54,189 bases of DNA from assembly GCF_003334335.1 (NCBI RefSeq), contig NZ_QOWQ01000032.1; one strand, 5' to 3'. The DNA comes from Escherichia coli. Its GTDB lineage: Bacteria > Pseudomonadota > Gammaproteobacteria > Enterobacterales > Enterobacteriaceae. This document shows, piece by piece, positions 10,671-11,191 of this stretch (position 1 is its first letter; each line of letters opens with the position of its first letter). A program made the translations under genes and the position numbers. The notes beneath the pieces are model-generated. The model did not search any database. It was not told the DNA's origin and worked only from the letters and a program-made list of their open reading frames with translations.

Positions 10671-10844
10671 TTAAAACAGTGAAAACAACAGCGCCACCGG
10701 GAAACTCATCGGCCATGTTGCCCCCACCAGAAAGGCGCTTAAGAAACGGATGCGTTTCTTATCGTGAGAAAGAAACCAGGTGATAAGAAATGCGATTGCT
10801 GCCATAACCGCATAAAAAACAAGCATGTGTTGATAGAGAGACAT
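10671..10844 (-). CDS. ortT: orphan membrane toxin OrtT (GhoT-like, 57 aa)
   Basis: Track ORF 10671-10919 is over-extended. Internal start gives MSLYQHMLVFYAVMAAIAFLITWFLSHDKKRIRFLSAFLVGATWPMSFPVALLFSLF, 57 aa with two TM helices, as I recall YdcX/OrtT. Confidence 0.75.
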   Translation of the reverse strand: MSLYQHMLVFYAVMAAIAFLITWFLSHDKKRIRFLSAFLVGATWPMSFPVALLFSLF

Positions 10845-11038
10845 GTACGGGCGTCCAGCCAGATGAATAAAACGCGCGCAAATATGCGTCATTTTTTGAC
10901 GTGCATCAAGTTTTTTCACCAGTTTGAGAAAAAATCATCAAACAGCAACTTGCCCTTATCCATCTTCAGAATGAGTATTATTGCGGATTTTCTTAACCCG
11001 TACTATACACATAGGGGCAATGATAAAAGGTGGCAAAA

Positions 11039-11134
11039 ATGAATGTTTCCAGTAGAACTGTAGTACTGATAAATTTCTTTGCTGCTGTTGGTTTGTTTAC
11101 TCTTATCTCTATGAGATTTGGCTGGTTTATTTGA
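11039..11134 (+). CDS. yncL: 31-aa single-TM small protein
   Basis: ATG at 11039 preceded by aaggtgg Shine-Dalgarno about 8 nt upstream. Translation MNVSSRTVVLINFFAAVGLFTLISMRFGWFI then stop. Below the ORF-track size cutoff. Position between ortT and patD matches K-12 yncL. Confidence 0.6.
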   Translation: MNVSSRTVVLINFFAAVGLFTLISMRFGWFI

Positions 11135-11156
11135 TGTAGTGATTTTGCACGCAGCA

Positions 11157-11191
11157 CGTACTGTCAGAGAAATCAGTGCTCTGACAGTACG
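11157..11191. terminator. 13-bp perfect inverted repeat between yncL and patD 3' ends
   Basis: cgtactgtcagag-aaatcagtg-ctctgacagtacg. Weak U-tract, so intrinsic termination is uncertain. Confidence 0.4.

Follow-up and report, generated by a model that had tools for sequence, protein, structure and literature searches.

The divergent genes ortT and yncL, which encode two very small membrane proteins, and the gene patD, which converges on yncL, lie next to one another in the window, that is, the whole 54,189-nt stretch of Escherichia coli DNA analysed here. The window is K-12-like, and the 661 bases around ortT and yncL are 100% identical to E. coli K-12 MG1655. At an identity of at least 95%, the same 661 bases are found in 5,416 of 5,426 complete E. 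coli genomes; among these complete genomes, plasmids carry six of the ortT-yncL matches. RefSeq labels the genes here ortT, yncL and patD, and it annotates both ortT and yncL in approximately 5,410 complete E. coli genomes; the annotated neighbours of ortT are ydcY, ydcZ, mnaT, yncL and patD. An earlier note on this DNA had described a divergent pair of genes for tiny membrane proteins, OrtT of 57 aa and YncL of 31 aa, about 195 bp apart; both ORFs lie where it placed them, and the gap between their start codons is 194 nt (10845-11038). The two genes, the FNR site upstream of ortT and the yncL transcript have already been described in the literature. The features of the locus are collected in Table 1.

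Table 1 Genes and regulatory features of the ortT-yncL-patD locus, in window positions
Feature	Position	Strand	Description and basis
ortT (ydcX)	10671..10844	-	57 aa (MSLYQHML...FSLF), inner-membrane protein of the GhoT/OrtT family; ORF, PF10753, RefSeq 'orphan toxin OrtT'
G+C-rich stretch TGCGCGCG	10880-10873	-	directly after the ortT -10; conservation across 80 species loci
Predicted ortT core promoter	10881..10909	-	-35 TTGATG (10909-10904), 17-nt spacer, -10 CATATT (10886-10881)
FNR box TTGACGTGCATCAA, minus strand TTGATGCACGTCAA	10896..10909	unstranded	overlaps the ortT -35 and spacer; conservation, published ChIP-chip
Predicted yncL promoter	10981..11009	+	-35 TTGCGG (10981-10986), 17-nt spacer, sigma-S-type -10 C-TATACA (11003-11009)
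yncL Shine-Dalgarno AAGGTGG	11027..11033	+	5 nt ahead of the ATG; inside conserved block AAAGGTGGC
yncL	11039..11134	+	31 aa, MNVSSRTVVLINFFAAVGLFTLISMRFGWFI, single-pass inner-membrane stress protein; ORF, NF000537
Stem-loop between convergent yncL and patD	11139..11200	unstranded	inner repeat CGTACTGTCAGAG (11157-11169) / CTCTGACAGTACG (11179-11191); outer stem 11139-11148 / 11191-11200
patD (ydcW)	11231..12655	-	gamma-aminobutyraldehyde dehydrogenase, convergent with yncL; ORF and RefSeq annotation

Judged by codon-position variability and RefSeq annotation, the ortT and yncL ORFs are real genes rather than chance. Variable sites at codon positions 1/2/3 number 43/25/55 in ortT (80 species), a coding-type pattern, and 9/6/27 in yncL (27 species), which points to selection on the YncL protein. 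The description of OrtT as GhoT-like is borne out by a full-length match to Pfam Toxin_GhoT_OrtT, in which OrtT residues 4-57 align to positions 1-55 of the 55-position PF10753 model (E = 9.2e-28). Hydropathy gives two hydrophobic segments parted by the basic loop SHDKKRIR, and the length of 57 aa is the same in 80 orthologues. The paralogy of OrtT and GhoT rests on Pfam and the literature: when E. coli genomes were searched at the DNA level for the paralogue ghoT, ortT alone came up within the E-value limit. NCBIfam holds no model that matches OrtT or YdcY, a PDB sequence search with OrtT found no match, and neither OrtT nor YncL was matched by the PADLOC defence models. Islam, Benedik and Wood 2015 (PMC4344625) found OrtT (YdcX) to be toxic, with membrane damage and a fall in ATP, and that paper credits ortT regulation to predicted sigma-E and sigma-H promoters. 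Induction of ortT by the stringent response and by heat has also been published, and disruption of a plasmid-borne ortT homologue in Pantoea lowers fitness in acidic contaminated groundwater (PMC11467524).

Two further candidates at ortT were rejected. An 82-aa, GTG-initiated extension of the ORF (10671-10919) is broken by frame-breaking indels between species upstream of the ATG, and it holds the conserved -10 and the FNR box. A perfect 9-bp hairpin within ortT (10740-10748 / 10753-10761, 4-nt loop) keeps all 9 pairs in only 3 of 81 orthologues; because it is not conserved, this hairpin, which lies over the KKRIRFL codons, is probably the product of the amino-acid sequence and chance codon choice. 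In E. coli MSB1_4I (NZ_LR898874.1) the match covers only the 3' half of ortT (positions 93-174), which suggests that the gene is truncated there.

YncL scores 68.6 bits against the NCBIfam equivalog NF000537 (cut-off 35), with residues 1-30 on the 30-position model. Its homologues bear Pfam PF28073, and hydropathy gives one hydrophobic segment. The earlier note had proposed that translation of the 31-aa ORF be confirmed, a check that is already answered in print. Tagged YncL has been detected, and RseP cleaves the protein in vivo (PMC10470546); cleavage by purified RseP was not reproducible. YncL has further been immunodetected and is induced in minimal medium and by heat (PMC12542507), and a translational lacZ fusion of the Salmonella gene is expressed (PMC5437024). 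Cells that overproduce YncL have a depolarised membrane and a condensed nucleoid, are more sensitive to pore-forming peptides and are less viable, and similar overproduction phenotypes are seen with unrelated small membrane proteins such as YohP (PMC12542507). At the RNA level, the yncL mRNA is among the RIL-seq targets of the small RNA KilS (PMC8175672), and Salmonella yncL is known as STnc1110, a sigma-S-dependent RNA of 195 nt (PMC4014581, PMC5437024).

The promoters of ortT and yncL were identified from cross-species conservation. A consensus promoter and terminator scan reported neither of the two promoters nor the inverted repeat after yncL, and returned chance-level sites alone. The elements upstream of ortT, roughly 35-65 nt ahead of the gene, are kept in all 80 species loci, with or without yncL, and the DNA around them is unconserved. 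Read on the ortT strand in the 80 species, their order is AAAACTTGAT-N4-(A/G)TCAA, 9 nt, CATATT and the G+C-rich block, and the -10 is CATAAT or CATAGT in the most distant genera. This conservation and the spacing suggest that TTGATG, the 17-nt spacer and CATATT form a sigma-70-type ortT promoter. The FNR box that overlaps it has half-sites (TTGA..N6..TCAA) without a mismatch in 61 of 81 sequences and with a single mismatch in most others, and the central 4 nt vary freely; the K-12 box matches the consensus TTGAT-N4-ATCAA at 9 of 10 positions. An FNR ChIP-chip study from 2007 found ydcX bound in vivo and named the identical site (PMC1802558).

Taking CATATT as the -10, the FNR box is centred at approximately -28.5, and so repression is predicted. 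A published rise of ydcX, 11.85-fold in CFT073 grown anaerobically on nitrate (PMC5320621), fits FNR repression, because NO may inactivate FNR under anaerobic nitrate growth. Conservation and spacing make it most likely that FNR represses ortT under anaerobic conditions. The OrtT paper mentions neither FNR, oxygen nor anaerobiosis (PMC4344625), and in the literature searched we found no paper that ties FNR to the gene under the name ortT.

On the yncL side, the promoter blocks ATTGCGGAT and CCGTACTATAC are kept in 27 yncL-bearing loci as well as in Raoultella, Pluralibacter and Yokenella. The strong Shine-Dalgarno that had been noticed from the letters alone is also borne out, the AAGGTGG 5 nt before the ATG being kept in the 27 aligned orthologous loci. 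Promoter and Shine-Dalgarno are kept wherever yncL adjoins ortT, and the upstream DNA differs at unlinked yncL copies. Conservation and spacing point to a promoter of the sigma-S type, and its -10 matches both the sigma-S dependence of the Salmonella gene and a strong RpoS holoenzyme SELEX peak in the yncL/ydcX spacer (PMC5493296).

To follow the two genes across species, a scan of one genome per species gave 80 OrtT loci, and the YncL family HMM was run on all six-frame ORFs of these loci at maximum sensitivity, with no speed filters. YncL adjoins OrtT in 27 of the 80 species loci, from Escherichia, Salmonella, Citrobacter, Intestinirhabdus and the isolate RIT691, and in all 27 it lies approximately 190 nt upstream of ortT and is divergent. 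The HMM found no YncL-family ORF within 4 kb of OrtT among the six-frame ORFs of the remaining 53 loci, which include Enterobacter, Kosakonia, Lelliottia, Leclercia, Phytobacter, Pantoea, Buttiauxella and Cedecea. Across Enterobacteriaceae the neighbour that stays with ortT is patD, and 65 of the 80 OrtT loci have PatD at 82-98% identity. The flanking E. coli neighbours YdcY and YdcZ turned up in none of the 80 loci other than those of Escherichia, and YdcY, once tested as an antitoxin candidate, is hence a genus-specific neighbour.

The reverse direction was covered by a profile search of 1.84 billion representative proteins for the YncL family, from which ten diverse representatives were located and, together with the E. 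coli cluster, make 11 YncL family clusters. OrtT is not nearby in 6 of the 11; those that adjoin it, besides E. coli, are Raoultella / Klebsiella aerogenes, two Pluralibacter groups and Yokenella. Unlinked yncL lies between thrS and yniD in Enterobacter hormaechei, beside yeaQ in Lelliottia / Huaxiibacter and in Leclercia, beside a pmp3-family gene in Franconibacter, and at two further sites. In Lelliottia sp. WAP21 ortT and yncL are on one contig (JAIWPG020000001), approximately 540 kb apart. Genomes in which the two genes are unlinked still have both, so phylogenetic profiles alone cannot separate them. Toxin-antitoxin pairs normally remain together. On the loci compared here, ortT-yncL adjacency holds in one group of genera and is dissolved in another, and both genes persist.

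A natural disruption of yncL was found in E. coli VE-T9 (NZ_AP027963.1), in which an IS3-family element sits in yncL after codon 12. The VE-T9 ortT is intact, its product having the K-12 protein accession, and nothing is missing from the region upstream of it, promoter included. This argues that YncL is unnecessary for carrying ortT, as seen in a single strain in which ortT may be mostly silent. In this part of the VE-T9 locus (positions 1670-3000) the element has a frameshifted transposase, and its flanking matches overlap by 4 bp (window 11071-11074).

OrtT had been called an orphan toxin with no antitoxin encoded nearby, and this stands: no GhoS-family (PF11080) endoribonuclease gene is found among the annotated neighbours of ortT, in agreement with Islam et al. 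2015 (PMC4344625). In that study OrtT was neutralised by none of YdcY, GhoS, the flanking intergenic DNA or a genomic library of 3x coverage. The library was shallow, with 622-bp inserts and orientation-dependent expression, and the upstream insert that was cloned consisted of intergenic DNA and approximately 7 yncL codons, with intact YncL outside it (PMC4344625). A direct co-expression test of OrtT and YncL was not found in the literature searched. An Rfam scan of positions 9800-12000 gave no match at E <= 1, and hence no described small RNA family there; a plus-strand terminator-like site at 10872-10889 is weak and at chance level, and the ortT leader fold is ordinary on both strands (z = -1.5 and -0.3).

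We consider it probable, at roughly 80%, that ortT and yncL are independent genes that are adjacent by inherited gene order. They would then be two monocistronic small-membrane-protein genes that stand back to back, rather than a toxin-partner module. OrtT, a two-segment GhoT paralogue with a published capacity to damage the inner membrane and lower ATP when produced, would be restrained at transcription, its sigma-70-like promoter sharing sequence with an FNR box that at least 80 species retain. YncL would be made from its own sigma-S-type promoter on a transcript predicted at approximately 185 nt (195 nt for the Salmonella orthologue) that ends at the stem-loop, which would also lie at the 3' end of the convergent patD transcript. 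The predicted promoters would fire apart, with approximately 140 bp between them, and the ortT and yncL transcripts would not overlap. Published work has YncL mildly depolarising the membrane when produced, being cleaved by RseP in vivo and pairing as mRNA with KilS. On this reading yncL is a sigma-S-dependent stress gene in its own right, whose place in enterobacterial genomes has shifted repeatedly. Against independence stand the divergent order and near-fixed spacing of the pair in Escherichia, Salmonella, Citrobacter, Raoultella / Klebsiella aerogenes, Pluralibacter and Yokenella.

The alternative that survives best, although we regard it as unlikely, is that ortT and yncL form a co-operating stress pair with a shared bidirectional control region, in which additive depolarisation leads to dormancy. 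The RpoS holoenzyme SELEX peak in the spacer would suit such a pair, as would the reported induction of both genes by heat or nutrient stress and the fact that overproduction of either protein condenses the nucleoid and costs the cell membrane potential or ATP. These phenotypes, however, also arise from the unrelated YohP and are therefore unspecific to the pair. The conserved promoter elements, moreover, are separate, approximately 90-130 bp apart, with poorly conserved sequence between them; the ortT control elements remain with ortT where yncL is absent, and unlinked yncL copies have different upstream DNA.

A more specific connection would be a direct contact in the inner membrane by which YncL adjusts how active OrtT is where the two genes are adjacent (Escherichia, Salmonella, Citrobacter, Raoultella / Klebsiella aerogenes, Pluralibacter and Yokenella), with the unlinked Enterobacter-like copies acting in trans. 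If true, this would make YncL a small-protein modulator of an 'orphan' toxin, and we consider it very unlikely. We give even slightly less credence to the stronger form, implied by the earlier note, in which YncL is the missing partner of OrtT, binds it in the inner membrane and neutralises or gates it, so that the two genes would make up a toxin-antitoxin-like module with divergent promoters. Adjacency, divergence and near-constant spacing in 27 of 80 OrtT loci and in Raoultella, Pluralibacter and Yokenella are what such a module would look like. Both proteins are inner-membrane proteins reported as heat-induced, and the published antitoxin tests of OrtT took in the first approximately 7 codons of yncL only. 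Yet linkage is lost in 53 of the 80 OrtT species, and 6 of the 11 YncL clusters lie away from OrtT; VE-T9, with its natural yncL::IS3 allele, keeps an intact ortT; and the 3x genomic library yielded no antitoxin. YncL alone depolarises the membrane and lowers viability, an effect in the same direction as that of OrtT and not a protective one, and the regulatory logic of the two genes differs, with an FNR box at one and a sigma-S promoter at the other. For these reasons together the partnership is disfavoured, and the implied idea is left unsupported. The literature uses OrtT to illustrate a toxin that lacks an antitoxin; a controlling neighbour would change that picture, and the comparative evidence makes one unlikely.

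OrtT resembles GhoT of the E. coli type V toxin-antitoxin system GhoT/GhoS, which likewise belongs to PF10753 and has 57 aa; published comparisons give 63% identity to OrtT and the same membrane-damaging, ATP-lowering effect. Unlike ghoT, ortT has no adjacent GhoS-family gene, its product is not neutralised by GhoS, and it appears to be monocistronic, with its own promoter and FNR box. Like the toxins of the type I systems Hok/Sok, TisB/IstR and Ldr/Rdl, OrtT is a toxic protein of the inner membrane, small and hydrophobic, that has no protein antitoxin. A possible difference from them is that no antisense or divergent overlapping RNA was found at ortT; there is no Rfam match, the predicted promoters fire apart and the flanking DNA does not neutralise. 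The closest likeness of yncL is to the sigma-S-dependent 'coding sRNAs' YohP / STnc1330 and YncL / STnc1110, the gene here being the E. coli orthologue of STnc1110. It shares with STnc1110 a short transcript predicted to be monocistronic, a sigma-S-type -10, a strong Shine-Dalgarno and a single-pass, depolarising protein of 31 aa, and differs from the Salmonella gene in that the K-12 3' hairpin has no U-tract.

The 13-bp perfect inverted repeat that had been noticed just past yncL is present 22 nt after the stop codon, with arms that are 100% complementary and a 9-nt loop. Folded as RNA, the repeat reaches -31.3 kcal/mol (z = -4.5) and gains an outer stem. Among 22 aligned sequences from Escherichia, Citrobacter and Salmonella, both partners vary in 8 of the 15 pairs and still pair, and 82% of alignment cells are paired, compared with at most 54% in slid controls. 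Of 30 distinct loci, 29 have a strong hairpin after yncL; in Raoultella, Pluralibacter gergoviae and the isolate RIT691 this hairpin is a textbook bidirectional terminator. A Salmonella transcript that began at the sigma-S promoter and stopped shortly past the hairpin would be about as long as the 195 nt observed. On the strength of covariation, positional conservation, the terminators in distant genera and this transcript length, the repeat is the 3' stem-loop of the yncL transcript, shared with convergent patD. It might instead be an operator bound by a protein, or one copy of an element repeated elsewhere, as could be suggested by its perfect palindrome, the lack of a U-tract on both flanks in K-12 and a core (CTGNCAGAGAG) common to Escherichia and Citrobacter. 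This is scarcely credible against the two-sided changes in 8 of 15 stem pairs, the different stem sequence at the same place in Salmonella, the canonical bidirectional terminators there in distant genera, the fit of the Salmonella transcript and a 54-kb window that holds no second copy of the repeat.

A U-tract follows the stem-loop in Salmonella, Raoultella, Pluralibacter and the isolate RIT691, and is absent in K-12, which has no A-tract either. The pair patD-yncL figures in a published RNA-seq list of convergent genes whose transcripts overlap (PMC12288877). Because of this listing and the missing U-tract, the K-12 hairpin may be a leaky terminator or a 3'-end stabiliser. It resembles bidirectional intrinsic terminators in being a G+C-containing stem-loop between convergent stop codons, with conserved position and covarying pairs, and departs from them in the lack of both tracts and in the published overlap of patD and yncL.

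Some minor observations concern the surroundings of yncL in other genomes. Unlinked YncL genes often stand beside other genes for tiny membrane proteins (YniD-like, Pmp3, and YoaK with a 24-aa ORF and a YeaQ-like protein), and several have a CTAYRCT-like, sigma-S-type -10 upstream. In Dryocola boscaweniae, an unrelated hydrophobic ORF of 32 aa, MKIGYLFPIAIIVSAVVLLAWFIIGGYAMPGA, lies between patD and ortT (locus 3654-3752, - strand), the position that yncL takes in E. coli; it could be a chance ORF or a different small membrane protein.
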